A DNA stretch of 64,000 bases from positions 1,440,001 through 1,504,000 of the forward strand of contig CAXXVS010000003.1 in NCBI GenBank assembly GCA_963674755.2, in the 5' to 3' direction. The notes under the pieces were generated by a model. That model saw only the letters and a program-made list of their open reading frames with translations, did not search any database and was not told the origin of the DNA. The stretch comes from Desulfobacterales bacterium (GTDB lineage: Bacteria; Desulfobacterota; Desulfobacteria; Desulfobacterales; UBA5852). Position numbers and translations under genes: made by a program. This document shows, piece by piece, positions 7,627 through 28,336 of this stretch (its first letter is position 1; every line of letters begins with the position of its first letter).

Positions 7627-7724
7627 TGAAACCAGCGCCAAAATCCTTATAAAACAACCGCCCAATACATATCCAAAGCGGTCTGCTTTGGCGGGTGAAA
7701 CCGATCATCACGCTTGGTTGAATG

Positions 7725-8408
7725 CTATGGCCCGCTGCCCTGCTTGTCCAGCACCGGACGGGCCTCGACGAGCTCCAGATCGAGCTGGTAGGCGTTGGCT
7801 CCCATGGCTTCCAGATGGATGCGGCAGGGCACGGTCCCATGGCCCTCGACCCCGGGGGGGCGGCATTCACTGATTTCCACGCGGCGGATCATGCGCTGCC
7901 GGCGGTTGTAGCGTTCCAGAAGATAGGTCCCCTCCGGCCTGCGGATGACATCCAGGAAACCGTCCGCCAGGGCATAGCGGCAGGTCGGATTCCCCGAGGG
8001 ATTGATGCCGGTGGCGACGGGCTTTCCCCGGGGAGGGAAGAAGATCAGGCGGATGTCCTGCATCATCCCCCCGGCCAGGGTCGGCCGGTCAAAGGGCGGC
8101 AGCGCCCTGCGGATGGTGAGGGTCCCGTCGTCCCGGGCCTCGAACAGCCGCAGCCCCTCGATGGACAGCAAGGCGCATTCGATGGTGTTCGTAGCCGGTG
8201 AGAGGGATACGACCCCGAGCATGACGCCCCGGCGCCCGCCCGGCAGGTCCGTGGTGATGGTATGCACCATGCGCCAGGCGCGATGGGGAAAAGCGGCGTC
8301 ACAAACCGTCGCTACATCCCCGGGCGTCTGCTCCGCCGGCATGATGGGCGGCAGGCTGTGGCAGGCCATAATCAGCAGGGCAAACGACGGCAGCAGGAAG
8401 TGTTTCAT
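7725..8408 (-). CDS. Putative lipoprotein resembling DUF3261/ApeN of aryl-polyene-type clusters
   Basis: Lipobox-like LIMAC and LLSIEGLRLFEA...LAGGMMQDIRLIF; overlaps the upstream LolA-like gene by 4 bp. Confidence 0.6.
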   Translation of the reverse strand: MKHFLLPSFALLIMACHSLPPIMPAEQTPGDVATVCDAAFPHRAWRMVHTITTDLPGGRRGVMLGVVSLSPATNTIECALLSIEGLRLFEARDDGTLTIRRALPPFDRPTLAGGMMQDIRLIFFPPRGKPVATGINPSGNPTCRYALADGFLDVIRRPEGTYLLERYNRRQRMIRRVEISECRPPGVEGHGTVPCRIHLEAMGANAYQLDLELVEARPVLDKQGSGP

Positions 8409-9067
8409 GGGTGATCGGTAAACAGGGCGGGGTCCACGGGCTGGTTGACAACGACATCCGTGAACTGCAGCCGGGTGAAATTGTGGTCGTCCTCATAGAC
8501 CGTGACCGACTCGATGACCCCGGGGCTATCGGCCAGCTGCAGGACGATTTTCTGTATGACAGTGGAAAGCGCTTTTTTGCGCGGTGACAGGATGATACGC
8601 CCGCCGGGCTCCAGGCGGGCCTCGAACTCCGGATTTTCATCGAAGCGGCCGTTCATCCAGCGGCCGATTTCCTGCATCACGAAAGACATGGCCGGAAGGG
8701 CGGCGGAGGCATCTTCCGTCCAGGTCGGGCCGGTCTTGACGAAACGCTGCACCCGGCCCTCATTCATCAGCAGGACACTGGGCAGGGGGGCTTCATATTC
8801 CCAGCGCAGCCGGTCGGGTGCGGCAAAGATCAGCCGGCCGCGGGATACCAGGGGCTGCGCCAGAATCTGCAGGTGCTTCTCCTGGGTAAAAGCGGCCTGT
8901 ACGCTCCGGATGTCCCGGGCGGCGGCGTGGATGCTTTCCCAGGAGGTGGTCCAGCCCGCCGCGATCAGCAACAGGGCCGCGCCCGCCATAAATCCGATCC
9001 CGATCATAGCAGACCGTATGCGATCCCGCCGTCGCCCGTTGGGACGACCAACTCGTGGACGCTTCAT
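8405..9067 (-). CDS. LolA-like outer-membrane lipid/lipoprotein carrier (ApeL-like)
   Basis: Signal peptide, then AAFTQEKHLQILAQPLVSRGRLIFAAPDRLRWEYEAP, typical of the LolA fold. Confidence 0.82.
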   Translation of the reverse strand: MKRPRVGRPNGRRRDRIRSAMIGIGFMAGAALLLIAAGWTTSWESIHAAARDIRSVQAAFTQEKHLQILAQPLVSRGRLIFAAPDRLRWEYEAPLPSVLLMNEGRVQRFVKTGPTWTEDASAALPAMSFVMQEIGRWMNGRFDENPEFEARLEPGGRIILSPRKKALSTVIQKIVLQLADSPGVIESVTVYEDDHNFTRLQFTDVVVNQPVDPALFTDHP

Positions 9068-9068
9068 T

Positions 9069-9806
9069 TCAGCACATGCCGCCGTTGACGCCGATCACCT
9101 GACCGGTGATGTAGGAGGCCTCCTCCGAGCAGAGGAAGCGCACCAGGCCGCTGACCTCTTCAGGGCGCCCCACCCGTGACATGGGGATGGCCTGCTTGAT
9201 CATATCCACCGGCAGGTCCTTGGTCATCTCCGTATCGATCAGCCCCGGTGCCACCACATTGACCCGGATGCCCAACCGTCCCACCTCGGCCGCCAACGCC
9301 TTGCTGGCGCCGATCAGCCCTGCCTTGGCCGCCGAATAGTTGACCTGTCCCCGGTTGCCCATGATGCCCGAGACCGAAGAGATCGTGACAATCGAGCCCT
9401 TTTTGCGGCGGATCATTTTTTTGATGACCGGCTTGGTGACGTTGTAGAAGCCCTTGAGGGCCACATCGATGACCGAATTCCACTTGCTGTCCTTCATCAT
9501 AAGGAAGAGGTCGTCGGCCGTGATGCCGGCATTGTTGACCAGCACCTCGATGGCATCGTAGCGGGCGGTGATGTCCTTCATGGCCGCACCGGCCTTTTCC
9601 GGGTCGGCCACATCGAAGGCCACGGTTTCAATGGTCCCCCCGGCGCCTTCGATTTCCGCCCGGGTCTCATCGGCCGAAGCCTGGTTGGAGTGGTAGTTGG
9701 CCACCACATGGTAGCCGGCGGCCGCCAGGGTGGCCGATATGGCGCGCCCGATGCCGCGGGTGCCGCCGGTGACGATGGCCACGCGTTTTTCGTTGTCCGT
9801 GCTCAT
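9069..9806 (-). CDS. fabG: 3-oxoacyl-ACP reductase (ApeQ/FabG-like)
   Basis: TGGTRGIG, NNAG, YSAAK and VAPGLIDTEM motifs. Confidence 0.92.
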   Translation of the reverse strand: MSTDNEKRVAIVTGGTRGIGRAISATLAAAGYHVVANYHSNQASADETRAEIEGAGGTIETVAFDVADPEKAGAAMKDITARYDAIEVLVNNAGITADDLFLMMKDSKWNSVIDVALKGFYNVTKPVIKKMIRRKKGSIVTISSVSGIMGNRGQVNYSAAKAGLIGASKALAAEVGRLGIRVNVVAPGLIDTEMTKDLPVDMIKQAIPMSRVGRPEEVSGLVRFLCSEEASYITGQVIGVNGGMC

Positions 9807-10183: not shown

Positions 10184-10456
10184 ATGGACGATTTTATCGA
10201 GGAACTGAAAGTACAGATTATTGAAACCCTGGCCCTGGAAGATGTTACCCCCCAGGATATCGATCCGGAAGGCCAATTGGTGGGCGGCGATCTCGGCATC
10301 GACTCCATCGACGTGCTCGAACTGGTGATGATGGTGGAAAAGGAATACGGCGTGGTGATCGACAGCAAGGAGCTGGGGGCCCAGGTTTTCGCCAGCCTGA
10401 AAGCGCTGGGCGATTATATCCGGCAGGTGCGCAGCGAGGGACGGGCGGTTGGCTGA
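10184..10456 (+). CDS. Acyl carrier protein 1 (ApeE-like)
   Basis: Acidic 90-aa protein with the LGIDSIDVLEL phosphopantetheine motif. Confidence 0.92.
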   Translation: MDDFIEELKVQIIETLALEDVTPQDIDPEGQLVGGDLGIDSIDVLELVMMVEKEYGVVIDSKELGAQVFASLKALGDYIRQVRSEGRAVG

Positions 10457-12695
10457 CCGGCAACGGGTCTTTATCAGCGGCATGGGCATTATCAGCGCCA
10501 TGGGGATCGGCGTGGACGCGACGCTCAAGGCGCTGCAGCGCGCCGCCACGGGCATTCGCCCCCTGACGCTTTTCCCGTGCCCGTTTGAAACGCCCCTGCC
10601 GGTGGGTGAGGTGGGGGACCTGCCCCGGGTGGCGGTGGGCCTGCCGCGGACCCACCAGCTGGCGCTGGCGGCCGTTCAGGAGGCCATGCAGGATGCGGAA
10701 ACGGTTCCGGACATGGTCATTATGGGAGTGACCACCGGGGGGATGCTCTCCACCGAGCGTGATTTGAAGCAGGGGCGGCGCATTCCGCGGTTTTCGCCCT
10801 ACCATGCGGCCGGTTCGGTGGCGGGAGTGCTTGCGGAAGAATGCGGCTGCCGCGGGCCGGTGATGACCGTATCTACGGCCTGTTCCTCCGGCGCCGTGGC
10901 CATCAAACTGGCCCTGGAGGTGCTTCGGCAGGGGGGCGCCCGGACCGTCCTGGTGGGGGGAGCGGATTCTCTGTGCCGGTTGACCTATTACGGTTTCAAC
11001 AGCCTGCAGATCGTGGACCGCCACGGCGCCCGTCCCATGGATCGGGACCGCCAGGGCATGAATGTGGGCGAGGGGGCGGCCATGCTGCTCTTGACAGCGG
11101 CCCACCAACCGCCACCCCGGGCGGTGGCCGAGGTCCTCGGCGGGGGGCTGTCCTGCGATGCCCACCACCCGGCGGCCCCCCACCCCGAAGGCCGGGGGGC
11201 CTACGATGCCATGGCCGCCGCCCTGTCGGACGCCGGCTTGCCGCCCCTATCCATAGATTATGTCAATCTGCATGGCACCGGCACCAAAGAAAACGATTTG
11301 TCCGAAGCGGTTGCCCTGCGGCGCATTTTCAAAGAGAACCTGCCGCCCGTCTCCTCGGTCAAAGGCTGTTTCGGCCACTCGCTGGCCGCGTCCGGTGTTA
11401 TCGAAGCGGTTGTGGCGGCCCTGTGTATCCGGGAAGGCTTTTTGCCGGCCAACGTGGGCTGGCGTCATCGCGACGAGGCCATCGGCTTCTGCCCGCTGGA
11501 GGCCCCCCGGTCCCAGGCGGTGGGGAAAGTCCTTTCCAACTCGTTTGGCTTCGGCGGCAACAACGCCGTGCTGGTGCTTGGGGACGCCGCGCCCTTGTCG
11601 ACGGCCCCCTCCGCGTCGGACTGGCGCACGCTGCAGGTCCGCAGCTACGCTTGTCTTACCGGGGCCGGCGGCACCGCCGCTACGCTGGAACGATTTTTCA
11701 GGGGGGCGTCCTGCAAGGGCACACTGGCGGCGGATCGCCTGACCGAAGGCCTGCCGCCCCGATCCGTAAGGCGGATGAAGCGCCTGCCGCGGATCGCCCT
11801 GGGGCTGGCGGCCCGAACCCTGAGGCGGATCGAGGGCGTCGGTCCTATCAGCGATGTCTATTTCGGGACGGCCTGGGGGGCGCTTTCGGAAACCCATGAT
11901 TTTCTGGACAAACTTTACGCAACCCAGGAGTTTTTCACCAGCCCCATCGATTTCGTGGGATCGGTCCACAATGCCCCGGCCGGTCAGATCGCCATGCGGG
12001 AGGGCGCCCGGGGGGCCAACGTCACCATGACCGGCGGCGATGCCTCTTTCGAGCAGGCCCTGACCGCGGCCCGTTTTCTGGCCGCCGGCGGCCGACAGTC
12101 GGTCCTGGTGGGAGGCGCCGATGAAATGCATCCCATTTTTTCAGCCCTCTTCGATCGATCGGTGACAATGGCCGACACCCCTTCGGACGGCGGCGGCATG
12201 CTGCTGCTGGAAACGGCCGGCGAAGCGGCCGGGCTGACGCTGCAGCCGGGATTTTTGGCGCCGGTGGGGAATCTGGGCGATTCCCTGGAGGCTGCGGCCG
12301 CTTTTCATGGCGGACCGGACGGCATCAACCAGCGCATCGGTGCGATCATGGTTGGCATCCCCGCCGTCTGCCGGGAGGAGGCCACCCCGCTTCTGGAAGC
12401 GTTCCGGCGCCGACTGGGGTTTGAAGGCCCTTTTATCGATTATCGCCGCTATGTGGGGGAATTCGGCTCGGCTTCGGCCGTGGCCGCCGTGATCGCCCTG
12501 GCGCTCCTGGAGCGCGGGTCGGTTCCCGGCCCGCTGGCAGGAGGAAAAGAGTGGGCCCTGGCCGGCCGCGGCATCTTGCTGCTGGGCCTGGGGGCGACCC
12601 TGTCGACGATGCTGGCCGATTCGTCCGGCAGCGTTGTGCGCGACAGCGGGGGATCCTACTGCCGGAAGACCCCGTTTGGGGAGCCTATCCCTTGA
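10449..12695 (+). CDS. Fused ketosynthase / chain-length-factor protein
   Basis: The N-half has TACSS, HGTGT, GHSL and NSFGFGG (active KS). The C-half has RRMKRL...SPIDFVGSVHNAPAG and lacks the catalytic Cys (CLF, ApeC-like). Confidence 0.85.
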   Translation: MADRQRVFISGMGIISAMGIGVDATLKALQRAATGIRPLTLFPCPFETPLPVGEVGDLPRVAVGLPRTHQLALAAVQEAMQDAETVPDMVIMGVTTGGMLSTERDLKQGRRIPRFSPYHAAGSVAGVLAEECGCRGPVMTVSTACSSGAVAIKLALEVLRQGGARTVLVGGADSLCRLTYYGFNSLQIVDRHGARPMDRDRQGMNVGEGAAMLLLTAAHQPPPRAVAEVLGGGLSCDAHHPAAPHPEGRGAYDAMAAALSDAGLPPLSIDYVNLHGTGTKENDLSEAVALRRIFKENLPPVSSVKGCFGHSLAASGVIEAVVAALCIREGFLPANVGWRHRDEAIGFCPLEAPRSQAVGKVLSNSFGFGGNNAVLVLGDAAPLSTAPSASDWRTLQVRSYACLTGAGGTAATLERFFRGASCKGTLAADRLTEGLPPRSVRRMKRLPRIALGLAARTLRRIEGVGPISDVYFGTAWGALSETHDFLDKLYATQEFFTSPIDFVGSVHNAPAGQIAMREGARGANVTMTGGDASFEQALTAARFLAAGGRQSVLVGGADEMHPIFSALFDRSVTMADTPSDGGGMLLLETAGEAAGLTLQPGFLAPVGNLGDSLEAAAAFHGGPDGINQRIGAIMVGIPAVCREEATPLLEAFRRRLGFEGPFIDYRRYVGEFGSASAVAAVIALALLERGSVPGPLAGGKEWALAGRGILLLGLGATLSTMLADSSGSVVRDSGGSYCRKTPFGEPIP

Positions 12696-14041
12696 ATGTC
12701 CTGCTCGTGTCGGCCAACCGGCTCAAGGCCCCCTATGTGGTCTATCCCCTGGGGCTGGACTATGTGATGCAGGCCATCGAAGACCGCCATCAGGTGCGGG
12801 TGGTGGACCTCAACGCCTCTGGCGACGACACAGCCCTGGGAACGATGATAAAGGACTTCCCTCCCGACATCGTGGGACTTTCCATCCGCAACATCGACAA
12901 CACGGATGGCCTCGATTCGCGGGGCTTCATCGGGCAGCACCGGGATCTGGTGACCTTGATCAGATCCCAGACCGCGGCGCCCATCGTTCTGGGCGGCAGC
13001 GGCTTCACGATCTTCCCGGCCGAATTGATGGCCCTGCTGGGGGCCGACTACGGGATCATCGGAGAGGGCGAGCGCCTGGCCGCGCTGCTGGAGGCCATCG
13101 AAAAGGGGAGGGACCCCGCCGGGCTCCCCGGGGTGATCCTGCCGGGTCAGGCCGCGAATCTGCCTGAGCCGCTCGATACCCCCGTGGGCCGGACGCTCAA
13201 TGGGTCCCCTGCCGTAACGGATTACTATGTGCGCCACGGGGGCATGCTCAATCTCCAGTCCAAAAGAGGATGTCCGTTCCGCTGCATCTATTGCACCTAT
13301 CCCCACATCGAGGGGCGCTCCATGCGGCTGATCCCGCCCGGGGAAGTGGCGGCCACGGCCCTGGCCCTGCAAAAGGCCGGTGCGCGCTACCTGTTTATCA
13401 CGGATTCCGCCTTCAATGCGGATTATGCGCACAGCCGGGCGGTGGCGGAGGCCTTCCGGGGTGCCGGCCTGTCCATTCCCTGGGGAGCCTTTTTTGCGCC
13501 CACCCGTCCGCCGGGGGACTATTTCGTCCGTCTGGCCCAGGCCGGGCTGTCCCACGTCGAGTTCGGCACCGAGGCCATGGCGGACACCGTTCTTAAGGCC
13601 TACCGCAAGCCCTTTCGGGTGGCCGACATCCGCGTCGCCCATCAGGCGGCCCAGGCGGCGGGGGTGCATTGCGCCCATTATCTGCTGTTGGGCGGGCCAG
13701 GCGAGACAGCGGCCACCCTTGCGGAAACGCTTTCCAATATTGACAAATTGCGCAACACCGTTGTATTTTTTTTCTGCGGTATGCGGATTTACCCGCATAC
13801 CGCTCTTTATCGTTTGGCGGTCGCGCAAGGGGTCATTGCCCCGGACGCGGACCTGCTGAAACCCGTCTTCTACCGATCCGAGGATCTCGATGAAGACATC
13901 ATCCTGGAAAAGGTAAGGCAGGCGGCCGGCGGAAGAGCCAACTGGCTTTTCGGCGCCGGCGGGGAAGAAACGGAAAAGATCCTGGCTCGGTTGCACCGCA
14001 GCGGATTCACCGGACCGCTGTGGGAATTCCTGATTCGCTGA
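12692..14041 (+). CDS. Lipid-biosynthesis B12-binding radical SAM enzyme
   Basis: TTG start overlaps the KS-CLF stop (TTGA); VYPLGLDY, SIRNIDN, GGSGF, GEGE and KRGCPFRCIYC motifs. Confidence 0.88.
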   Translation: MNVLLVSANRLKAPYVVYPLGLDYVMQAIEDRHQVRVVDLNASGDDTALGTMIKDFPPDIVGLSIRNIDNTDGLDSRGFIGQHRDLVTLIRSQTAAPIVLGGSGFTIFPAELMALLGADYGIIGEGERLAALLEAIEKGRDPAGLPGVILPGQAANLPEPLDTPVGRTLNGSPAVTDYYVRHGGMLNLQSKRGCPFRCIYCTYPHIEGRSMRLIPPGEVAATALALQKAGARYLFITDSAFNADYAHSRAVAEAFRGAGLSIPWGAFFAPTRPPGDYFVRLAQAGLSHVEFGTEAMADTVLKAYRKPFRVADIRVAHQAAQAAGVHCAHYLLLGGPGETAATLAETLSNIDKLRNTVVFFFCGMRIYPHTALYRLAVAQGVIAPDADLLKPVFYRSEDLDEDIILEKVRQAAGGRANWLFGAGGEETEKILARLHRSGFTGPLWEFLIR

Positions 14042-14074: not shown

Positions 14075-14422
14075 ATGCCGCCCAACACCGAACAGACCGC
14101 AGCCACAACCCGGCAGGTTGCCGTTCCGGCGGATTCGCTCTGGTTCCAGGGACATTTTCCGGGCGATCCCATGCTGCCGGGCATCGCCCAACTGCATCTC
14201 GTTGTGGAGACGCTAAAGGAGCGCCTGGGAGAAGGCCTACGTCTGACCAGCCTCAAACGGGTGCGGTTCAAACGCGTCATCCGGCCCGACGAGACCGTCG
14301 CGATCGCCGCCGATCCTGTGCCGGACAAGCCCGGCCTGTACCGCTTTCAATTGACAATCGGGGGCGAAAATGCCTGCGGCGGCTTGATGATGACCGATCG
14401 TGCCAATGCTGATGATCCGTGA
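14075..14422 (+). CDS. FabA/FabZ-like hot-dog dehydratase (ApeI-like)
   Basis: WFQGHFPGDPMLPG and VRFKRVIRP motifs. Confidence 0.85.
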   Translation: MPPNTEQTAATTRQVAVPADSLWFQGHFPGDPMLPGIAQLHLVVETLKERLGEGLRLTSLKRVRFKRVIRPDETVAIAADPVPDKPGLYRFQLTIGGENACGGLMMTDRANADDP

Positions 14423-14488: not shown

Positions 14489-14749
14489 ATGGCAGTTGAA
14501 AGCAAGGAATCCGAGATTGTCCTGAAGGTCGCCGAAGTGCTGATCGATGAGTTGAAGCTGGAGGATGTGACCCCGGCGACCTTCGATCCGGAGATCGACC
14601 TGGTGGATGAAATCGGCATCGATAGCATGGATCTGGCCACCGTGGCGCTGGTCCTGCAGGATCATTACGGTATCCGCTTTGACGAGGACGATTATCCGAC
14701 GCTGACGACCGTGCGCAAGATTGCGGCTTATATCGGGGAGCGCCTCTAA
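14489..14749 (+). CDS. Acyl carrier protein 2
   Basis: Acidic 86-aa protein with the IGIDSMDL motif; AGGGAG RBS. Confidence 0.9.
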   Translation: MAVESKESEIVLKVAEVLIDELKLEDVTPATFDPEIDLVDEIGIDSMDLATVALVLQDHYGIRFDEDDYPTLTTVRKIAAYIGERL

Positions 14750-14776
14750 TTCTGAAAATCCCATGGGGAAAACCGC

Positions 14777-15871
14777 GTGACTGTACCACAAATAAAGGAT
14801 GATCAACACGTTTGCCGCGAACCTGAAACCCAATGGAAATTCGCCGATATCCTGGCGGATGCGGCCATCAATGAACGCTGGCAAAAGGTGCGCCGCTATT
14901 TTTTCCTGCGGGAGTCCACCTATGACATGACCCGGCGCTGCAATATCCGCTGCGAGGGCTGCTACTTCTTCGAAGGCGCCAAGCAATTTGCCGATGAAAA
15001 TGCCGATCCGGACGCCTGGCGGCAGCTCATGCAGGACGAAAAAGCCCGCGGGGTGACCTTTGTGGTGCTGGCCGGCGCCGAGCCGGGGCTCGTGCCGGAA
15101 CTCTGCCGGGTGTGCTACGAAGAGATGCCCCTGGGAACCATCGCCACCAACGGTCTGGTCCGCATCCCGGAAACCGTGGGCTACAAAATCCATATCTCGG
15201 TATGGGGCAATGATGCCACCAGCCGGCGCGTTCGCGGGGCCGCGCACATGCTGGAGCGCCAGATCGAAAATTACCGGAACGATCCCCGGGCGGTTTTCGT
15301 CTACACCTTTACCCCGGCCAACATCGAGGACGCCCGCGAGGTGGCGGAGATTCTGGCCGCCCGGGATGCCAAACTCACCTTCAACATGTTTTCCGCCCCG
15401 GTGGGGTATGACGGCCCGTTGAAGCACACCCCGGCTTCCCTGCGGAAAGTCCGGGAAACGATGCTGCAACTCCTTGCCGACTACCCGGAGCATGTCCTGT
15501 TTTCCAATTACAATGCCGTGGTACACACCCACGAGTTGGGCCTGCATGCCTTGTTCGCCTGCCCCTATCCCCGACGGAATGCTTCCCACAATGTCGGCCT
15601 GGGGCGTTCCTTCCGTCAATACCGCACCGACCTGAACTGGGATCGCCAGGCGGCCTGTTGCGTGCCGGATACGGACTGCGGCGATTGCCGCCATTACGCC
15701 GCCGGGAGCGCCATCGTGACCGCCAAACTGTTCCGCCACGCCACCGACCCGGTAACCTTCAGCGCCTGGTTGGACTATGTGGACACCTACCTGGCGGTTT
15801 GGGTCAAGGGGTATGAAAAAGGCGCCAATCTCTACAGCGGTGTCACCGAACCTCCCTGTTGTGCGCCTTGA
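14777..15871 (+). CDS. Radical SAM enzyme of unknown function (paralog A)
   Basis: YDMTRRCNIRCEGCYFF, LAGAEP, TNG; C-terminal CCVPDTDCGDC Cys cluster. Confidence 0.85.
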   Translation: MTVPQIKDDQHVCREPETQWKFADILADAAINERWQKVRRYFFLRESTYDMTRRCNIRCEGCYFFEGAKQFADENADPDAWRQLMQDEKARGVTFVVLAGAEPGLVPELCRVCYEEMPLGTIATNGLVRIPETVGYKIHISVWGNDATSRRVRGAAHMLERQIENYRNDPRAVFVYTFTPANIEDAREVAEILAARDAKLTFNMFSAPVGYDGPLKHTPASLRKVRETMLQLLADYPEHVLFSNYNAVVHTHELGLHALFACPYPRRNASHNVGLGRSFRQYRTDLNWDRQAACCVPDTDCGDCRHYAAGSAIVTAKLFRHATDPVTFSAWLDYVDTYLAVWVKGYEKGANLYSGVTEPPCCAP

Positions 15872-15956
15872 ACAGGTGCCGGCCCAGGAGGGTTGCCCCC
15901 ACGCTGACCGGCAATCCCAGGGCTTTATGGCTGATTGTCGTTAGAAGGAGTTGTTG

Positions 15957-16955
15957 ATGAAAACGGTAAGTTCCCTGCTGGATGAGGCCTGGTATGCACG
16001 CTACAAGCGCATTTCCAAGCTGAACATCCGCAGTTCGATCTATGATGTCACCAACCGCTGCAACCTGCGCTGCAAGGGTTGCTTTTTCTTCTCTTCCGGC
16101 GAGGACAAGGCGGCCGACGAGGAAACCCGTCTGGAACGCTGGGAGACCTTTATCGACGACGAGATGGCCCGGGGGGTCAACCTGGCCATCCTGATCGGCG
16201 GTGAGCCCACCCTCCACCTGGATCGCGTGGAAGCCTTCTACCGGCGGCTGCCCACCTTCTGTGCCACCAACGGCCTGATCAAGGTGCCCCGGGACCGGTT
16301 CCCGGACCTGATGGTGGGGATCTCTCTGTGGGGGGACGAAAACGACGAGAAGGCCCTGCGAGGCAAAGACACTTTCGCCGTGTCGAGCCGCAACTACGCG
16401 GGCGATCCCCACACCTACTACCTTTACACCATCACCCCCAAACAGATCGGCAAGATCGAAACGGTGGTGCGCAAGATCCGGGATGTGGGCGTCAAGGTCC
16501 ATATGCAGCTGCTCTCCAACGACGAGGGCGTGGACGGTTTTTCCTGGAAGGACGAAGAGCTTCGGGATGTGCGCTTCGAGATGGACGAGATGCTGGACCG
16601 CTACCCGGACACCGTGATCTCCTGCAAATATTACCACCAGGTGATCACCTCGGGGGAGATGCTGGGGCGCCCCTTCGGGTGGAACGAATGCCCTTCGGTC
16701 ACCGAACCCCTGGACACCCGGGACCCCCAGCCCAAGCGCCTGATCCATTTCATCCGCTGGGCCTCGGACCTCGAGACCATGCACCGCTGCTGCACCTCGG
16801 AGACCCGGGACTGCCGGACCTGCAAGGACGGGGCCGCCCACATGAGCTGGATTATGGTCAACAAGCGGGCCCATATCCGCACCAGCGAAGATTTGCAGAA
16901 CTGGATCGAGGTTTACGAGATGTTCGCCAAACTTTACCAGTTCATTCCCTGGTAG
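15957..16955 (+). CDS. Radical SAM enzyme of unknown function (paralog B)
   Basis: YDVTNRCNLRCKGCFFF, LIGGEPTL, TNG; C-terminal CCTSETRDCRTC; GAAGGAG RBS. Confidence 0.85.
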   Translation: MKTVSSLLDEAWYARYKRISKLNIRSSIYDVTNRCNLRCKGCFFFSSGEDKAADEETRLERWETFIDDEMARGVNLAILIGGEPTLHLDRVEAFYRRLPTFCATNGLIKVPRDRFPDLMVGISLWGDENDEKALRGKDTFAVSSRNYAGDPHTYYLYTITPKQIGKIETVVRKIRDVGVKVHMQLLSNDEGVDGFSWKDEELRDVRFEMDEMLDRYPDTVISCKYYHQVITSGEMLGRPFGWNECPSVTEPLDTRDPQPKRLIHFIRWASDLETMHRCCTSETRDCRTCKDGAAHMSWIMVNKRAHIRTSEDLQNWIEVYEMFAKLYQFIPW

Positions 16956-17165
16956 AGCGGCGCGTGCCGCTCCCGCCGATGCATTTTCCGGCCGGAGCAC
17001 AGGACCTTTTTCGCCGCCGTTTCGGCCCTGATTCAGGACACGCCGAAGCGGCGGTTCGTTTTCTTCGACGTGGAGGAAAATGAACGCTTTTTTTAAACGC
17101 TTCCGGAAAGGTTCTATCTTTTTTCTACCCTTTTACCGGAAGCTGTGCATTAGCATTAACAACAA

Positions 17166-18416
17166 ATGAAATCTTCGAAAACCGTCATTGTCGGCTGGGA
17201 CATGGTCTCCCCCCTGGGGACCGAGCTGGAGGACCAGTGGACCCGTGCCGCCGCCGGGACGAGCGGCATCGGTCCCCTGACGCGCTTCGCCCTTCCGGAA
17301 AACTTCCCGGTGGCCATCGCCGGCCAGGTGCCGGACTGGGACGCCGGCCCCTATCCCTTCCTATCCCCCCGGCAAATGGCCCACTGGACATCGCCCATTT
17401 TCCCCCATGCCCTGCTGGTGGTGCACCGTGCCCTGGCCCGGGCCGGGATCGCGATCACCTCCGAGCTGGCCCCCCGGGTGGCCGTCACCTTCAGCAGCGC
17501 CGTCGGCGGCCTGGATGCGGTGCTCGCGGCCGACCGCAGGATGATCGCGGAAAACAAGCTGCCGCATCCCTTCACCAACCCCAATTCCTGCATCAACATG
17601 GTGGGGGGCAAGGTCTCCATCCTGACCGGCGCCACCGGCCCCATCACCGCCACCATCACGGCCTGCGCCACCGGCGTGACTTCCCTCATCATGGGGCACT
17701 TGCTCCTGGAACAGGGCCGGGCCGACCTGGCCATCTGCGGGGCCGTGGATTTCTGCCTGGTGGAGCCCATCGTGGCCGGCTTCGCCACCATGAACGGGGC
17801 CTACCAGCCCAAACCCGGCCAGGCACCGCTGCCGCCCGCACAGGCCAGCCGGCCTTTTTCCATGGGCCGGCGGGGATTCGTCATTGCGGAGGGGGCCGGC
17901 TGCCTCCTCCTGGCCACCGAGGCCTTTGCCCGGGACCACGGCCTGCCCCGGGACATTGCCCTGGCGGGCTGGAGCATGACCTCGGATGCCGCCCACTTCG
18001 TGGCGCCCAACCCGGCCACGGTTACCCGCTGCATCGCGGAAGCCGTGAACGACGCCGGTTTAAAGCCGGCCGAGGTGGATGCGGTCAACGCCCACGGGAC
18101 CTCCACCCGCATCGGAGACACGGTGGAAGCCGATGCCCTGACGGCTGTTTTCGGGGATCGCCCGCCGCCGGTGTCGGCCAACAAATCCATGACCGGCCAC
18201 GCCATGGGCGCTTCCAGCGCCATCGAAACCATTCTGGCCATCGAAGGCCTGCGGCGGGGGGCGTTGCTGCCCACCATCAACCACCAGCCGGACCCGGACA
18301 TCAAACTGGATGTGGTGGGGGAAGGGGCCCGCGCGCTGGATCAGACCTTCGTTTTGAAAAATGCCTTCGGGTTCGGCGGCTGCAACGCCTGCATCATTCT
18401 TCAGCGGCGGGGATGA
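17166..18416 (+). CDS. Beta-ketoacyl-ACP synthase (FabF family), KS-2
   Basis: TACATG, HGTST, GHAMGA and NAFGFGG motifs. Confidence 0.9.
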   Translation: MKSSKTVIVGWDMVSPLGTELEDQWTRAAAGTSGIGPLTRFALPENFPVAIAGQVPDWDAGPYPFLSPRQMAHWTSPIFPHALLVVHRALARAGIAITSELAPRVAVTFSSAVGGLDAVLAADRRMIAENKLPHPFTNPNSCINMVGGKVSILTGATGPITATITACATGVTSLIMGHLLLEQGRADLAICGAVDFCLVEPIVAGFATMNGAYQPKPGQAPLPPAQASRPFSMGRRGFVIAEGAGCLLLATEAFARDHGLPRDIALAGWSMTSDAAHFVAPNPATVTRCIAEAVNDAGLKPAEVDAVNAHGTSTRIGDTVEADALTAVFGDRPPPVSANKSMTGHAMGASSAIETILAIEGLRRGALLPTINHQPDPDIKLDVVGEGARALDQTFVLKNAFGFGGCNACIILQRRG

Positions 18417-18658
18417 TAGAGCCGTTCCGGCTCGGCCGGCAGTGCATCCTGTCCAAACCGGCCAATCCATGATATGGCCCCCCTTCGGAAAAGGTGAAAA
18501 AGGACCGGCCGAAACCGACATCCCGGGTGCGGCCCCTTTATTATCCGACAATTGCGGTTATATTGGAAAAATGTGTGACCCTGCAAGCCGCCGGCTGTCG
18601 CGCGGCCTGGGATGAATGATGATCCGTACCTGACCGTGAAAAGGTGATCCGCTAGACC

Positions 18659-19924
18659 ATGAAAGCACCGGCCAATCGACACGTCTACGTTGTGGGCTAC
18701 GGGACGGCCACCCCGCTGGGGTTGACCTTCCCCGAAACCTGGCGGCGCGCCGTCCGGGGGGAATCGGGCCTGCGCCCCATCACCCGCTGCCAGGTGGAGA
18801 CCCGCAACAACGTGGTGGGCGAGATTCCGGGCTGGAACCCCGAGACCCTGGATTTCGTCGATAAAAAAGAGGCCTACAACTGGAATGCGGACTTCGTTCT
18901 GCTGACCATGGCCGTCTGCCGGGAAGCCCTGGCCCATGCGGGGCTCCCCATGGACGAGAAGATCGGACCGCGCACGGCCTGCCTGGTGGGATCGGCCTTG
19001 AACGGAACCGACGCCTACCGGACCGCCATGGACAATTACGTCAACCGCGGGCCGCTGAAGGTCAGTCCCTATCTTCTGCCCAACCTGTGCGCCAACCTGC
19101 CGGCGGGCAAGAGCGGCATGCTGGAGGGGTTCACCGGTCCGATTTTTTCCCCCCAGGGGGCCTGCGCCTCGGGCAACCACGCCATCGGTATCGGGGCCCG
19201 CATGATCCGCGACGGGGATTGCGACGTGGCCCTGGTGGGGGGCGTGGATACCTGCCTGATTCCGGAGATCATTCACGGTTTTGCCAATATGCTGGCCACC
19301 ATCAGCATCGGCCCCAAGGATCGGGCTTTTGGGGATCCGGGACAGGCCTCACGTCCCTTCAGCAGCGACCGTAAGGGGATGGTACTGTCCGAAGGAGGCG
19401 GCGTCCTGGTGCTGGCAGCGGACGACATCGTGTCCGCCCATGGCCTCAAGGCCCGGGCCGAGGTCCTGGGGATCGGCTGGACCTCGGATGCCTTTCACTT
19501 CACCCAGCCCAACGCGGAGACCATCGTGCGGGCCATCCGGGAGGCCATCGACGATGCCGGCCTGCAGCCGGAGGACATCCAGGTTGTCAATGCCCACGGC
19601 ACCTCGACCCTCAAGGGGGACCGCACGGAAATCGAGTGCCTGCGCAGCGTCTTCGGCGGGCGCGTTGGACGGATTCCGGTCTCGGCCAACAAATCCCAGA
19701 TCGGCCATTCCCTGGGGGCGGCGGCGGCCATCGAGGCCGCCCTGGCCATCGAGGGCATGCAGCGGGGGCTGATCCTGCCCACCATCAACCACATCCCCGA
19801 TCCGCATTTCGACGATATCGACGTGGTGCCCGGCCAGGCCCGGCACCAGGCCCACGAAATCGTGCTCTCCAATGCCTTCGGGTTCGGCGGCACCAACTGC
19901 TGCGTCGTGCTGCGAGGTCTGTAA
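18659..19924 (+). CDS. Beta-ketoacyl-ACP synthase (FabF family), KS-3
   Basis: GACASG, HGTST, GHSLGA and NAFGFGG motifs. Confidence 0.9.
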   Translation: MKAPANRHVYVVGYGTATPLGLTFPETWRRAVRGESGLRPITRCQVETRNNVVGEIPGWNPETLDFVDKKEAYNWNADFVLLTMAVCREALAHAGLPMDEKIGPRTACLVGSALNGTDAYRTAMDNYVNRGPLKVSPYLLPNLCANLPAGKSGMLEGFTGPIFSPQGACASGNHAIGIGARMIRDGDCDVALVGGVDTCLIPEIIHGFANMLATISIGPKDRAFGDPGQASRPFSSDRKGMVLSEGGGVLVLAADDIVSAHGLKARAEVLGIGWTSDAFHFTQPNAETIVRAIREAIDDAGLQPEDIQVVNAHGTSTLKGDRTEIECLRSVFGGRVGRIPVSANKSQIGHSLGAAAAIEAALAIEGMQRGLILPTINHIPDPHFDDIDVVPGQARHQAHEIVLSNAFGFGGTNCCVVLRGL

Positions 19925-20404
19925 ATGAAGCCCAAACCCTTTCGGCCGGAACCGTTCGACGGAGCGCCCAACTATGTGCGCGATGACTCCGGCGGACAGG
20001 TTTGGCACCGCTGCCACACCCGCGTGCTCTACGCCGACACCGACCGCTCCCAGGTGGTCTACCACGGCAACTACCTGCGCTATTTCGAGTTCGGACGGGC
20101 CTCCCTGATGCGGGATGCCGGCTATCCTTACAAGGCGGTCGAAGAAAATGGGTTTGTCTACCCGATCATCGAGATCGGCCTCAAATATGTCAGCCCCTTG
20201 CACTATGACGACCCCATCTGGGTCAATACCCGCCCGGCCGACCTGGAGCGGGTGCGGCTGAGCTTCGACTACGTGATTACCCACCGGGAGACGGGCGACC
20301 TGATCTGTACGGGCACCACCCGCCACTGCGCCACCAACACCGCCGGTGTGCCGGTGGGCATCGACGAACAGACCTTAAACCTATGGCAGACTTTTCCCCG
20401 CTAA
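19925..20404 (+). CDS. Acyl-CoA/ACP thioesterase (YbgC/4HBT family, ApeK-like)
   Basis: RVLYADTDRSQVVYHGNYLRYFEFGR motif. Confidence 0.88.
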   Translation: MKPKPFRPEPFDGAPNYVRDDSGGQVWHRCHTRVLYADTDRSQVVYHGNYLRYFEFGRASLMRDAGYPYKAVEENGFVYPIIEIGLKYVSPLHYDDPIWVNTRPADLERVRLSFDYVITHRETGDLICTGTTRHCATNTAGVPVGIDEQTLNLWQTFPR

Positions 20405-21276
20405 GCGGCCCCCGACGCATTGCGTTGGCGATTTCAAACCCGGCCTGGCTGCAAGATCACCGCTTTATGGGGCAGGCCGTGCTGCCCGGCGTTTGGGCCC
20501 TTGAATACCTGGCCCGGGCGGTGGAGGGTGTATTCCCCGAAGCGGTGCTGACTTCCTGCACAGCGGTGCATTTCGACAAGTTCCTGGCGTTGCCGCCGCC
20601 TGGCATCGCGGCGGTCGATGCGGTGGCCGAGATCGCGCCACTTGCCGGAGGCCTATTCGAAACCGTGCTCCTTACCCGTCATGTGGCTCCCCGAAGCGGG
20701 ATATCCCGTATGAAGGCCCATGTCAGGGCCCGCTTCGGTTTGTGGAGGCGGGCAGGTCATGACCGGCGGCCGGAGCCCCGGCCCGTCGAAGCGCTGCGGG
20801 ATGTCTTCGAGGTGGAACCGGAGCGCCTGTATGCGGAGATGGTGCCTTTCGGTCGCACCTTCCGGAACGTCGTCTCCCCGGTCCGGCTCGCTACCGGCGG
20901 TGCCCGGGCTACGGTAGCGGGGGGCGATCCCAAAGGTGAAGACACCTTTTTGCGGCTGGGCTCGCCTTTCCCGCTGGATGCGGCTTTCCACGCGGCCTGC
21001 GCCTGGGCCCAGCGCTATCGCGGCATCGTGGCCTTTCCCGTGGCCCTGCAGCAGCGCCTGATCCACCAGTCCACCTGCTTCGGGCATCGTTACGATGCGG
21101 AGATCTGCTTCAGAGAAGAAGAGGGCCGGGATCTCCTGTTCGATCTTTATCTTCGTGAAGGCGGGGGACGGCTTTGCGAAGTCGTGCGAGGTCTTGTCAT
21201 GCGGGATGTCAGCGGCGGCAAACGGCAGCCGCCGGACTGGGTCCGAACCGGGTTGAATGACGATGTGACGCGCTGA
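20383..21276 (+). CDS. Stand-alone PKS-type double hot-dog dehydratase
   Basis: WLQDHRFMGQAVLPG (HxxxGxxxxP) and LDAAFH (catalytic Asp region). Confidence 0.78.
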   Translation: MADFSPLSGPRRIALAISNPAWLQDHRFMGQAVLPGVWALEYLARAVEGVFPEAVLTSCTAVHFDKFLALPPPGIAAVDAVAEIAPLAGGLFETVLLTRHVAPRSGISRMKAHVRARFGLWRRAGHDRRPEPRPVEALRDVFEVEPERLYAEMVPFGRTFRNVVSPVRLATGGARATVAGGDPKGEDTFLRLGSPFPLDAAFHAACAWAQRYRGIVAFPVALQQRLIHQSTCFGHRYDAEICFREEEGRDLLFDLYLREGGGRLCEVVRGLVMRDVSGGKRQPPDWVRTGLNDDVTR

Positions 21277-22808: not shown

Positions 22809-22833
22809 GGGGTTGCCTTTACCGTTCGCTATT

Positions 22834-25519: not shown

Positions 25520-26884
25520 TCATGCAAACAAATCGGCTGCTGTCTGCCGGTCGTATTTGCCGGCGGCGGACATGGGGATTTTGTCAACGACAACGATCCG
25601 TCGGGGAAGCGCGTAAGGCTCCACCCTGGCCGCCAACGCCTGGCGAATCTCCATGGCATCGCGCGTGCCTTCCACCAGCGCCACGATTTCGTTTTCCCGG
25701 CCCCGACCGGCGGGCAAAGACAGCACCAGGGCGTCCGTGATGCCCGGCAGTTCCTTCAGACAGGTCTGCACGCCCTCCAGGTCCACCCGCCTGCCGCCCA
25801 CCTTGACGATGCCATCGGCCCGGCCTTTGAGGAGAAAACTCCCCTTGTTATCTTCACCCACACGATCGCCGGTCAGGAAAAACCCCTTGGCATCAGTTTT
25901 TAAGTTGGGGGAAAGATAGGGGCTGCGGACATAGAGCCGCTCGCCGATGATTTTGGTTTCCACGGAGGCCAGCGGCGAGAGGCCGGTTTCGTTGTTGGCC
26001 CGGTTGCGGGTGGCCACGCCGCCGGTTTCGGTGGAGCCGTAGACTTCGGTGACGCCGATCCCGGTCTGCTCGAAAAAGGCTGCACCGTCCTCGGGCTCCA
26101 GGCGGCCGGCCGAAGAGACGGCCAGGCGCAGGTGGCCGGCGTCGACGTCCACGCTGCGGAGCACCCGGTAGTGCATGGGCACTCCGGCGAAGATCGTGGC
26201 CTTGTGGCGGGTCAGGGCCTCCATGATGCCGTCGGGATAGACGGAGATGCCGGGGTTCACGCCGGCCGAGGCGACCATGGGGATCAGGACGGCGAAGAGC
26301 AGGCCGTAGATGTGATAGGGCACGGTCATGGCCACAAAACGGTCTTCCGGCGCTATGGCGAAGCGTTGCGCCATGAAAAAGGCTTCCCCGAAGAGATTGC
26401 CCACGGTTTTGGGCCAGACCTGGGGTTTTCCAGTTGTGCCGCCCGTGAACAGGCGCACCATCACCTTGTCGATCGGGGCAGGCTGTAAGCCCGCCTCCGA
26501 GAATCCGGCCGGGGTGATATAGACCGGCTGGAGGGGCGCGGGCAGGTCGTCCGGCCGGTCGGTGATAACCCGGCGGGCACCGGTGGCGGCGTGGATCTCC
26601 TGCAGGGCATTGGTGCTCAAGGCGTAGGGCAGCAATAGTGGGGGCGTTCCTTGGGCGGCGGCGGCCAGCATGGCTGCGGCGGTAAAGGCTTTGCCCTCGG
26701 TGTAGAGACAGACCGGCTCCTCGGGGGTATCAAAATCGGCCAGGGCGCCCACCAGGCCGTAGGCCAGATCGTAAAGCGCCTGGTAGGTGGTCAGGTGTTC
26801 GATAAAGGTCTTCTCCGGTATGGACGGCGCTGCCAGGAGCCGTGCCATCTGCTCTTCGAGTGGGATAGGGTAGTGCAAGGCCAT
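25520..26884 (-). CDS. AMP-dependent acyl-CoA/acyl-ACP ligase (ApeH-like)
   Basis: LFTGGTTGKP, VYGSTETGG, TGD, GRADGIVKVGG and GK motifs. Confidence 0.88.
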   Translation of the reverse strand: MALHYPIPLEEQMARLLAAPSIPEKTFIEHLTTYQALYDLAYGLVGALADFDTPEEPVCLYTEGKAFTAAAMLAAAAQGTPPLLLPYALSTNALQEIHAATGARRVITDRPDDLPAPLQPVYITPAGFSEAGLQPAPIDKVMVRLFTGGTTGKPQVWPKTVGNLFGEAFFMAQRFAIAPEDRFVAMTVPYHIYGLLFAVLIPMVASAGVNPGISVYPDGIMEALTRHKATIFAGVPMHYRVLRSVDVDAGHLRLAVSSAGRLEPEDGAAFFEQTGIGVTEVYGSTETGGVATRNRANNETGLSPLASVETKIIGERLYVRSPYLSPNLKTDAKGFFLTGDRVGEDNKGSFLLKGRADGIVKVGGRRVDLEGVQTCLKELPGITDALVLSLPAGRGRENEIVALVEGTRDAMEIRQALAARVEPYALPRRIVVVDKIPMSAAGKYDRQTAADLFA

Positions 26885-26887
26885 CCG

Positions 26888-28321
26888 TCAGTGATCCTTT
26901 TGGGGTTCGAAATTGCGCTTGGCTGCGATGAAGCCCGGCAAGTGGGCCATCACGTGCCACAGGCTCCAGCGGTGCTCCCATAGCCGGCGATGGAAGCGCC
27001 GCCGCCAGTCCGGGCTGGAATAGAAGCGTTTGACATGCTGGTTGTAGAGTTCGTCCAGGGCTTCCCGGGAGGCGATGGCCCGGGGCACGAAGACGAAGTT
27101 CAGGCAGTTCATCTGTCGCCAGTCTTCCCGGAAGGTACCGTGCTCCTGAAGATTCTGCCACACCGGGGCGCCGTGAAAAGGAGTGAACTTGGTCATGTTC
27201 ATGTCGTCCAGGCCGAGGGACATGACGAAATCGCTGGTGCGGCGGATGGAGGCCTCGGTTTCCCCGGGCAGGCCCATTATGAAAAGGCCCTTGGTCCGCA
27301 GCCCGTGGGCCTGGATGCGGCGAATGGTGTCCCGGACCGCCTCCGGATGGACGCCGGGTTTGTGGCGGTCCATCAACTCCGTGTCGCCGGTTTCGATGCC
27401 CAGGGACACTTGCAGGCAGTCGGCGGCTTTGAGCATCCGCAGCAGGTCGTCGTCGGCGTGTCCCACCCGCACCGCGCAGTTGAATTGTATCCCCAGGGGC
27501 TTGTCGCCCAGCAAAGTGCACAATTCGGTGATGCGGCGGCGGTGGGCGGTAAACAGGTCGTCGTAAATATTGATGTGGCGCACGCCGAAGCGGTCGTGCA
27601 GATAATGCATATGGGCGTAAATGTAGGCGGCGGAGTTATAGCGGTAGCCCTGCTTGAACACCGAGCGGTCGCAGTAGGAGCATTTGTAGGGGCATCCCCG
27701 GCTGGTGACCATGGTGGCGCCGGGGCGCTGGATGTAACTGAAAAGCGGCAGATGGTAGCGCCGGGGAAAGCCTTCCAGCAGATCGTAGGCCGGAAAGGGT
27801 AATTGGTCGAGATCCGGCAGGAGGCTGCGCGCCGGGTTGCTGACGACCTGTGCACCATCCCGCCAGATCAGTCCCGGGATGTCGGCCGGGGAGACCCCGT
27901 CGGCCAACTCGGCCAGGGTGGCCTCGCCTTCCCCCATGCAGAGAAAATCGATGGCGGCAAACGCTTTCAGCAAAGGCGCGCCGATGGCGGAGACGTGTAC
28001 TCCGCCGAAGATGCACACGATTTCGGGACGCTGCGCTTTGAGGGCCTCGGCCAGGGCGTAACCGTCCAGAAAGCCCGAGGTGGTGGCGGAAAAACCCACC
28101 AGATCGGGCTTCAGGGCCAGGATATCCCGGACCACCAGGTTATGGGGGCGGGTCCGGTCCCAGGCCAGGCAGTCGTAGACCTGCACCCGGTGGCGCCCTT
28201 CCCGCAGCCAGGCGGCCATGGAAAGCAGCCCCAAGGGCGCCATACGGTTGGCGATGGGGGTGAAGTCGGTTTGACCGGGCACCCAGTTGGAGCCGGCCGG
28301 ATGGATCAGGACGATGTTCAT
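26888..28321 (-). CDS. B12-binding radical SAM enzyme (class B methyltransferase-like)
   Basis: APLGLLSMAA, VGFSAT, FGGVH, GEGE, TSRGCPYKCSYC and GLPGET motifs. Confidence 0.9.
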   Translation of the reverse strand: MNIVLIHPAGSNWVPGQTDFTPIANRMAPLGLLSMAAWLREGRHRVQVYDCLAWDRTRPHNLVVRDILALKPDLVGFSATTSGFLDGYALAEALKAQRPEIVCIFGGVHVSAIGAPLLKAFAAIDFLCMGEGEATLAELADGVSPADIPGLIWRDGAQVVSNPARSLLPDLDQLPFPAYDLLEGFPRRYHLPLFSYIQRPGATMVTSRGCPYKCSYCDRSVFKQGYRYNSAAYIYAHMHYLHDRFGVRHINIYDDLFTAHRRRITELCTLLGDKPLGIQFNCAVRVGHADDDLLRMLKAADCLQVSLGIETGDTELMDRHKPGVHPEAVRDTIRRIQAHGLRTKGLFIMGLPGETEASIRRTSDFVMSLGLDDMNMTKFTPFHGAPVWQNLQEHGTFREDWRQMNCLNFVFVPRAIASREALDELYNQHVKRFYSSPDWRRRFHRRLWEHRWSLWHVMAHLPGFIAAKRNFEPQKDH

Positions 28322-28336
28322 AGGGGGCAGGTGATC

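Follow-up and report, generated by a model that had tools for sequence, protein, structure and literature searches.

Gene content of the block

The 64,000-nucleotide stretch analyzed here (the window) comes from a Desulfobacterales bacterium (GenBank assembly GCA_963674755.2, contig CAXXVS010000003.1, positions 1,440,001 to 1,504,000 of the forward strand) and harbors a compact block of lipid-type genes built around two radical S-adenosylmethionine (rSAM) enzymes, termed rSAM-A and rSAM-B. These stand between a dedicated acyl carrier protein (ACP), ACP2, and two FabF-like ketosynthases (KSs), KS2 and KS3, which are followed by a hot-dog thioesterase and a polyketide synthase (PKS)-type dehydratase (Table 1). 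An earlier note, made from the sequence alone, had described this seven-gene set with its two homologous non-B12 rSAMs and two intact KSs. The set is real: all seven open reading frames (ORFs) were confirmed on the plus strand, closely packed and at the positions given there. The block is a conserved module centered on an unnamed enzyme family and represents a variant of the rSAM-decorated type II fatty acid synthase (FAS) and aryl-polyene islands. The best overall explanation, which we rate at a probability of about 0.5, is that the block builds a special acyl chain on ACP2 and that rSAM-A and rSAM-B modify this chain by radical chemistry.

Most homologues of rSAM-B are 332 residues long, so that its start is likely the ATG at 15957; residue numbers are counted from the TTG at 15951. 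The thioesterase start abuts the KS3 stop (TAA-ATG), and the PKS-type dehydratase carries HxxxGxxxxP together with a conserved Asp, the motifs of a His/Asp dyad. KS2 and KS3 are divergent and catalytically intact, as had been claimed: they share 41% identity and keep FGFGG and the Cys-His-His residues (C167/H310/H345 in KS2, C169/H313/H350 in KS3), which also appear in the consensus of the full-length orthologues (71 for KS2, 64 for KS3). Neither reaches the cut-off of the FabF equivalog TIGR03150 (493.75 bits), and for both the FabF scores exceed those for the PRK09116 family. Judged from the intact triad, KS2 and KS3 should work like FabF, yet they form subfamilies of their own. In a sequence search of the PDB, ACP2 and the KSs match generic ACPs and FabFs and no anammox-named entry, and the dehydratase finds no match. 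Promoter-like sites (5, shuffles 2.4 ± 1.6), terminator-like sites (11, shuffles 11.2 ± 3.7) and a 13-pair stem at 17054–17085 between rSAM-B and KS2 were not used as evidence. In one RNA run a small share of words matched; the contigs were short and mostly less than 95% alike.

Table 1. Genes of the block and of the surrounding island (window coordinates)
Feature	Position	Strand	Remarks
ApeI/FabZ-like single hot-dog dehydratase	14075..14422	+	PF22818, 29 bits (cut-off 28.5)
ACP2, dedicated acyl carrier protein	14489..14749	+	PF00550, E 5e-10; Ser in DSM phosphopantetheine motif
rSAM-A, non-B12 radical SAM	14777..15871	+	364 aa; twitch-like Cys domain
rSAM-B	15951..16955	+	332–334 aa; twitch-like Cys domain, B-specific Cys104
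KS2, FabF-like ketosynthase	17166..18416	+	TIGR03150, 320 bits (below cut-off of 494)
KS3, FabF-like ketosynthase	18659..19924	+	TIGR03150, 357 bits
YbgC/4HBT hot-dog thioesterase	19925..20404	+	TIGR00051, 81 bits (cut-off 68.7)
PKS-type double hot-dog dehydratase	20383..21276	+	PF14765 and PF21089 above cut-off
ACP1, ApeO-like KS fused to chain-length-factor domain, TIGR04072 B12 rSAM	10184..14041	+	NF006617, 69.7 bits (cut-off 70); NF006618, 318 bits; PF13723; TIGR04072 at 12551–14041, 415 bits (cut-off 360)
FabG ketoreductase, LolA-like protein, lipoprotein-like ORF, second B12 rSAM	6100..9806	-	divergent
Acyl-AMP ligase, B12 rSAM, DUF2062 with GT2-like N-terminus, ApeP/ApeI-like dehydratase fusion	25520..30492	-	

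Distribution and co-inheritance

A scan of GTDB species yielded 539 stretches related to rSAM-B; locus counts use the best 80, and per-gene counts refer to loci whose contig leaves room. The hosts of these 80 belong to Desulfobacterales, Desulfobulbales, Smithella/Syntrophaceae and Spirochaetota. rSAM-A lies directly upstream of rSAM-B at all 75 loci, and ACP2 (67/67), KS2 (74/76) and KS3 (64/67) are present with nearly the same regularity, a strict linkage which bears out the proposal of a dedicated ACP and paired KSs. The thioesterase (55/60) and the PKS-type dehydratase (46/54) are found less regularly. Upstream of ACP2, the ApeI-like dehydratase recurs at 64 of 64 loci and is part of the conserved block, although it lies outside the seven-gene set.

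Across 301 genomes, an even sample of Desulfobacterota, rSAM-B (at least 71% identity) occurs in 23, all of which have rSAM-A no more than about 2.5 kb away on the contig that carries rSAM-B, and the KS3 orthologue is confined to the same 23 genomes; these co-occurrence counts include kin, which are not independent, and carry no formal statistic. The pair is present in 12 of 17 genomes of the bacterium's own family and in 10 of 201 Spirochaetota genomes. Median identities over 74 loci, computed without six close relatives, are 80% for rSAM-B, 71% for KS3, 70% for ACP2, 69% for KS2, 68% for rSAM-A, 63% for the thioesterase and 36% for the dehydratase, making rSAM-B the most constrained gene of the block. 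A divergent spirochaete copy, which neighbors a further ACP and an acyltransferase-like gene, retains only ACP2-A-B-KS2-KS3, which are taken as the core for this reason. Thus, ACP2, rSAM-A, rSAM-B, KS2 and KS3 are passed on as one unit, usually with a thioesterase and two dehydratases. Among named species, Desulfosarcina widdelii and Desulfonema limicola have rSAM-B orthologues, and Desulfogranum japonicum has the whole block.

One spirochaete genome (G317) holds two A/B pairs (C4:93722-95757 and C11:13430-15505), each near a TIGR04072 gene. Further copies in the bacterium's own genome were looked for and rejected, leaving one A and one B. A horizontal island was likewise rejected on composition, the GC content of 0.59–0.65 being the same as in the flanks. 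Two queries against viral contigs returned no relatives.

Motifs, family and fold of the radical SAM pair

rSAM-A and rSAM-B share 28% identity over 332 columns (E 2e-37). The CX3CX2C motif (C55/59/62 in A, C37/41/44 in B) is found in 63/63 A and 63/63 B orthologues, and the motifs quoted earlier are all present: TNG, SxWG and YTxTP in both enzymes, and the C-terminal cluster as CC-x5-C-x2-C at 294/295/301/304 in A and CC-x6-C-x2-C at 280/281/288/291 in B. One further cysteine, overlooked in the earlier note, stands 27–33 residues before the CC (C262 in A, C247 in B) and is likewise conserved in 63/63 A and 63/63 B. rSAM-B also carries Cys104, before TNG, in 62 of 63 orthologues. Among distant relatives from metagenomes, the upstream Cys, the leading Cys of the CC and the CxxC are conserved in 60 of 61 full-length proteins, 6 of which, like 17 of 54 distant representatives, have another residue in place of the second Cys of the CC. 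A variable second Cys with four cysteines kept family-wide fits a fully ligated, electron-accepting cluster. One four-Cys auxiliary [4Fe-4S] cluster of the twitch type is therefore probable, in line with the auxiliary Fe-S cluster proposed earlier, the conserved cysteines being its predicted ligands. SPASM domains have seven to eight cysteines for two clusters; here there are five C-terminal cysteines, one of them variable, and PF13186 (SPASM) matches neither rSAM at E 0.01. Neither enzyme matches the B12-binding PF02310 or TIGR04072.

Membership in the radical SAM superfamily follows from the motif and from the core fold of the rSAM-B model; PF04055 reaches its cut-off for rSAM-B, and rSAM-A stays below it (24.7 vs 29.5 bits). 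The family, which the earlier note had not recognized, lies under no NCBIfam model above cut-off: the best scores are 29.6 bits (A) and 34.2 bits (B) against cut-offs of 180–650, and these partial scores are confined mostly to the N-terminal motif region. NirJ, AhbC, ScmE, PapB, Tes, MoaA, viperin and PTO1314 were compared by name, and the pair fits none of them. In Pfam, the rSAMs match only Radical_SAM/Fer4_12, and the Atlas clusters of the family bear automatic names only. A literature search found no published account of the pair or family, earlier depiction in figures or supplements (e.g., the Desulfotalea map) being possible.

With rSAM-B as query, the best PDB sequence match is SkfB (E 0.005), and identity to any solved rSAM is at most 21%. 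The AlphaFold model of rSAM-B (pLDDT 88.9) aligns best with BlsE (7vob; Z 17.9, root-mean-square deviation 3.7, 257 residues) and SkfB (6efn; Z 17.8, root-mean-square deviation 4.7, 244 residues; Foldseek TM 0.51), both alignments spanning residues 20–327; SuiB, anSME, viperin and Tes (Z 13.2) come next. The short C-terminal Cys domain thus points to the twitch subclass, with the fold read from the rSAM-B model.

These scores bear on a very remote alternative, in which the enzymes would insert sulfur into acyl-ACP as LipA does, or add methyl branches without B12 in the manner of RlmN or HemN. LipA relies on an auxiliary cluster to modify octanoyl chains, the hosts are mostly sulfidic anaerobes, and spare conserved cysteines are available. 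However, the four conserved cysteines suggest a closed cluster, lipoyl synthase (Z 10.8–11.1), HemN (9.7) and Cfr (8.8) lie far under the twitch enzymes, and the surrounding island already has B12 rSAMs.

Origin of the pair

A profile of rSAM-A and rSAM-B retrieved 140 representatives at E ≤ 1e-30 among clusters at 50% identity. In quick, midpoint-rooted trees (the first without 17 partial rows), rSAM-A groups with a branch from Acidobacteriota, Myxococcota and Reinekea, its nearest sister branch (Pyrinomonadaceae, Myxococcota, Reinekea) showing 40–55% identity to A. rSAM-B groups with P0137, the thioesterase fusion P0165 and PaaC-linked plasmid proteins. Holding A and B together lowered the log-likelihood by 115.5 (p-AU 3e-81 in an approximately unbiased (AU) test on a 33-row subset, run after the first tree had been seen). 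The view of the two genes as tandem paralogues from a local duplication was therefore rejected: each gene falls in a deep branch of its own that also includes members from elsewhere. No A-B fusion was found among the 150 best representatives, where only the thioesterase fusion exceeds 600 residues; no dedicated search for long proteins was made.

This history also argues on how the two enzymes cooperate. An obligate A/B heterodimer, performing one C-C coupling or ring closure that needs two radicals, in keeping with the two-subunit complexes suggested in the earlier note, would explain why the genes are adjacent and co-occur in orthologous loci (23/23 genomes; 10/10 spirochaetes), and an A-like protein (P0284) and a B-like protein (P0273) of another lineage have the same assembly figures (3 contigs; longest 71,540), a hint of a second pairing. 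Against it, the SAM and auxiliary Cys sets are complete in both enzymes, the other members of the two deep branches are single genes, inserted genes separate A and B at L082 and L083, and the lone locus with a second family copy among 78 distant metagenome loci carries one gene twice, the second time inverted and frameshifted. Such a heterodimer is considered decidedly improbable; A and B likely act sequentially.

Distant single-copy relatives

Plasmid members of the family are single genes, present in 16 records, four of which were examined. Those from Burkholderia, Alteromonas and Tistrella share a unit of PaaC-like diiron protein, rSAM and hot-dog protein, which in Burkholderia adjoins a type II thioesterase, an acyl-homoserine lactone (AHL) synthase and an ACP/halogenase set. 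A Methylomagnum plasmid combines ACP, TauD, rSAM and a nonribosomal peptide synthetase, and P0165 is a natural TubC_N(docking)-thioesterase-rSAM fusion. Units of the PaaC-like type lie at L089:9180-11535 (Alteromonas plasmids), L088:11246-13643 and L090:11881-15879; the Alteromonas unit is next to a Tn3 transposase in the one plasmid examined, and Alteromonas records total 11.

A metagenome scan with one sub-branch as query, from which the best 80 of 96 matches were used, provided 78 loci, of which 54 were Pfam-scanned and the remainder labelled via BLAST clusters. Among 77 single-copy loci, 46 place the rSAM beside an acyl-transfer or hydrolase-type gene: GNAT or GNAT-like (16), tetratricopeptide repeat (TPR)-alpha/beta-hydrolase (11, 10 with GxSxG), MBOAT (10), LuxI (6), and HlyC, acyltransferase-3 and ACP with KS (1 each). 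Another 3 of the 77 have PhyH only and 28 have no label; collapsing at 70% identity leaves 42 lineages, 24 of them labelled. The family is thus repeatedly linked to enzymes moving acyl groups, not to fab genes. The earlier note had named singleton homologues away from fab genes as a finding that would speak against its proposal. The distant homologues are indeed single and away from such genes, with an ACP match in 1 of 78 loci, whereas true orthologues are always paired and beside them.

LuxI and HlyC draw on acyl-ACP. The simplest unifying reading of the wider family is acyl-thioester tailoring, in which a housekeeping ACP would be used where no private one is encoded. Cassettes of luxR-luxI-phyH-rSAM (L158:767-3568, where the contig ends within the rSAM gene, L166 and L136; also L141, L150 and L180) may produce an AHL with an unusual acyl chain. 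These LuxI-linked singletons offer a simpler read-out, in which an unusual AHL would expose the reaction of the family. Linkage of luxI and phyH is known in Novosphingobium, in an account of which the part seen mentions no rSAM (PMC3704786).

Further recurrent settings concern proteins. A TPR protein with a C-terminal GxSxG alpha/beta-hydrolase-like part is encoded upstream of the rSAM at L124-L128, L134, L138, L156 and L181 (directly so in most; one also has an RTX-repeat protein) and downstream at L118. At L140:7896-13492, L142, L143 and L155, the rSAM is followed by a 170-residue protein without Pfam match, a sulfotransferase and an autotransporter, an operon that could be a protein-modification system. 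The TPR proteins and sulfotransferase-autotransporter sets, together with the peptide and protein modifiers SkfB, SuiB, anSME, ChlB and CteB among the top folds, would suit a protein target (ACP2, a KS or a secreted protein at singleton loci) in place of the acyl chain. This is very unlikely for the block: the Radical_SAM/Fer4_12 matches include no leader-binding domain, the recurring neighbors (ORFs of at least 65 residues) include no conserved small peptide gene, and the thioesterase fusion and the LuxI and MBOAT neighbors indicate acyl groups.

Oxygenase-type neighbors dependent on Fe and 2-oxoglutarate (PhyH, JmjC, Asp-beta-hydroxylase, 2OG-FeII) occur at 9 of the 54 scanned singleton loci. 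Neighbors of this kind would suit carbinol chemistry, with A and B acting on hydroxyacyl-ACP2 as epimerase, dehydrogenase or radical dehydratase, as other twitch enzymes do. BlsE is the closest fold, SpeY, EpeE and DesII are among the other fold matches, and Cys104 in rSAM-B and the fifth Cys in both enzymes are possible hydrogen donors, a role such cysteines have in epimerases. We nevertheless regard carbinol chemistry as unlikely, since the block of the anaerobes has no hydroxylase and already has two ordinary dehydratases, and since epimerization by two separate radical enzymes would be costly.

The surrounding lipid island

Ketoreductase, enoyl reductase, malonyl transferase and acyl acceptor enzyme are all missing within the coordinates of the block, which normally sits in a larger island; its description as self-contained does not stand. 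The TIGR04072 B12 rSAM gene lies directly upstream, and the divergent arrangement at 6100–9806 recurs in many orthologous loci. The genes at 25520–30492 are a detached part of the same island, split off by an ERCC4/HhH nuclease, a HipA/HipB-like pair (labelled by manual sequence reading) and DUF423 at 22122–25085. The B12 rSAM gene at 6100–7359 has a partial second copy, 98% identical, about 10 kb upstream (G000:C3:1435395-1436306), and a further short fragment lies near C3:1438614; the repetition is either a local duplication or an assembly relic.

In the Desulfobacterota sample, TIGR04072 is above cut-off in 59/301 genomes, 43 of which lack the A/B pair, and a full-length match shares the contig of the pair in 17 of the 23 pair-positive genomes; in G319 the pair is present with no TIGR04072 match at E 1e-60. 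Recurring neighbors in the 80 loci include a polysaccharide deacetylase (40), PlsY (30) and an MMPL-methyltransferase (11), as well as GT2, LpxL-type and lysophosphatidic acid (LPA) acyltransferases, DAK2-DegV and an aromatic amino-acid lyase. No enoyl reductase was found among recurring neighbors, part of which were covered by the Pfam scan. Most of the island neighbors missing here sit elsewhere in the same genome (C1 742–756 kb, C2 1713–1720 kb); PlsY and a polysaccharide deacetylase of the island type were not matched there at E 1e-8. Detached halves of this lipid island lie at G000:C1:742467-756531, with ACP, DAK2-DegV, thioesterase, GT2, MMPL-methyltransferase, LpxL-type and LPA acyltransferases, ACP3 and a KS, and at C2:1713081-1719706, with an aromatic amino-acid lyase, AMP ligase, two KS-family genes and ApeP. 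At L101, L105-L106, L086 and L093 a second sub-module travels with the island, composed of a small ACP, a divergent KS, an LPA acyltransferase, a B12 rSAM and a SPASM rSAM (or a phytoene-desaturase-like gene). In sum, aryl-polyene/TIGR04072 "ladderane-island" lipid clusters may carry the block as an accessory or do without it.

Proposed function

The observed genes, motifs, co-inheritance, phylogeny and neighborhoods, together with the fold of the rSAM-B model, are best accommodated if the block makes a single special fatty-acyl chain on ACP2, the carrier that it encodes. As the earlier note had supposed, acyl-ACP2 is the best candidate substrate and probably the correct one. rSAM-A and rSAM-B would carry out two separate, successive radical steps on the growing acyl-ACP2, with KS2 and KS3 elongating before and after the modification and a ketoreductase borrowed from the surrounding island. 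In each step, a 5'-deoxyadenosyl radical would take a hydrogen atom and an electron would pass to the four-Cys auxiliary [4Fe-4S] cluster, resulting in a net oxidation without oxygen that creates a new C=C bond and/or a new C-C ring. Given acyl-ACP2 as substrate, oxidative desaturation or ring closure is a tentative assignment, held at slightly less than even odds. Since the recurring neighbors include no enoyl reductase, double bonds may persist in the chain, a state favorable to radical addition to an alkene. Once complete, the chain would be transferred by an acyltransferase (PlsY, LPA- or LpxL-type) to an aryl-polyene-like envelope glycolipid, the presumed final product, to be exported by MMPL/LolA. 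In settings where aerobic relatives combine a single rSAM with an oxygenase, the anaerobes have two rSAMs, one of which may replace the oxygenase.

Several points weigh against this reading. The twitch fold hosts many reactions and therefore singles out neither desaturation nor cyclization. As ACP is matched in just 1 of 78 distant loci, the acyl-ACP view of the wider family derives from neighbor types, which were labelled by hand without background control; many unlabelled loci are short contigs, and 12 GNAT-like calls fall in two groups with weak or no Pfam support. Furthermore, MBOAT, GNAT and alpha/beta-hydrolases also take coenzyme A esters or other substrates, and the TPR and sulfotransferase-autotransporter contexts are equally compatible with protein modification. 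Two singletons, L081:9898-11025 (G035) and L146, have no acyl-related neighbor and lie instead near imuA/imuB/dnaE2-like genes and a glucose/sorbosone dehydrogenase-like protein.

A more speculative extension, to which we give a low probability, would make the whole family a general oxygen-independent acyl-ACP desaturase/cyclase. Single members would tailor the acyl chains of quorum signals, surface polymers and acylated proteins across bacteria, and two deep branches would have been recruited jointly in sulfate reducers, syntrophs and spirochaetes for a ring-containing, possibly ladderane-like, fatty acid in hosts that can be cultured. The small size of the block, its strong conservation and its presence in named species make the question accessible to direct tests.

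Comparison with known systems

The analysis adds three points: the pair and KS3 co-occur exactly, a local duplication is rejected, and single-copy relatives have acyl-transferase neighborhoods. The twitch rSAMs BlsE and SkfB, and the SPASM relatives SuiB and anSME, resemble the pair in the rSAM core and the short C-terminal Cys domain. Identity to the twitch enzymes is 17–21%, however, the Cys spacing is C-x(27-33)-CC-x5/6-C-x2-C, and the genomic setting is one of acyl-carrier chemistry rather than of peptides or nucleosides.

The lipid rSAMs Tes/Mss/Gms, GrsA/GrsB and Jaw5 likewise activate C-H bonds of acyl chains (PMC13459092). In the lipid sections of the same review, Tes performs auxiliary-cluster-assisted C-C formation and Jaw5 modifies a chain during its growth, both as proposed here, and GrsA/GrsB provide a precedent for two related rSAMs acting in turn on a lipid. 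Tes is larger, giving just Z 13.2 in the fold comparison and 25 bits with NF045702 against a cut-off of 450, the Grs proteins are B12 enzymes and Jaw5 is HemN-like. Those sections name no twitch enzyme on acyl-ACP, and radical chemistry free of O2 and B12 on carrier-bound fatty chains is not among the lipid rSAM reactions they describe (PMC13459092).

Aryl polyene (APE) and flexirubin clusters (ApeA-R) share at least two ACPs, an ApeO-like KS-chain-length factor and ApeI/ApeP with the island, and also a hot-dog thioesterase, LolA-like and MMPL export and acyltransferases, with an aromatic amino-acid lyase at some loci (PMC8253772). The gene roles described there include no rSAM pair, PKS-type double hot-dog dehydratase or second FabF-like KS pair (PMC8253772). 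Hence, aryl-polyene gene content characterizes the surrounding island (partly dispersed in the genome) and not ACP2-A-B-KS-KS by itself.

Ladderane ring formation is still unsolved. Anammox candidate cluster I (kuste3603-3608) is recognized by one intact and one dead FabF, a phytoene-desaturase-like gene and a B12 rSAM. Its FabF pair has one inactive subunit according to the part seen of a preprint (bioRxiv 10.64898/2026.05.19.726425), whereas KS2 and KS3 are both intact, the rSAMs of the block are non-B12 and the block has no desaturase-like gene. The Kuenenia candidate list, as far as seen, contains four rSAMs (kuste2803, 3342, 3343 and 3608), none of them between an ACP and two intact KSs (PMC4790861). 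Closer are the "ladderane-island" FAS II clusters with TIGR04072 described from Kuenenia (kuste3335-3352) and Desulfotalea psychrophila (PMC2649909; PMC4790861), the latter reported without detected ladderanes (PMC2649909). The TIGR04072 B12 rSAM is common to both and to the island type described here, as are a polysaccharide deacetylase, an acyl-AMP ligase, GT2 and a phytoene-desaturase-like gene; the A/B pair is optional. As far as the cited sources describe these islands, the block is an optional sub-line of the Kuenenia/Desulfotalea island type with aryl-polyene-like parts.

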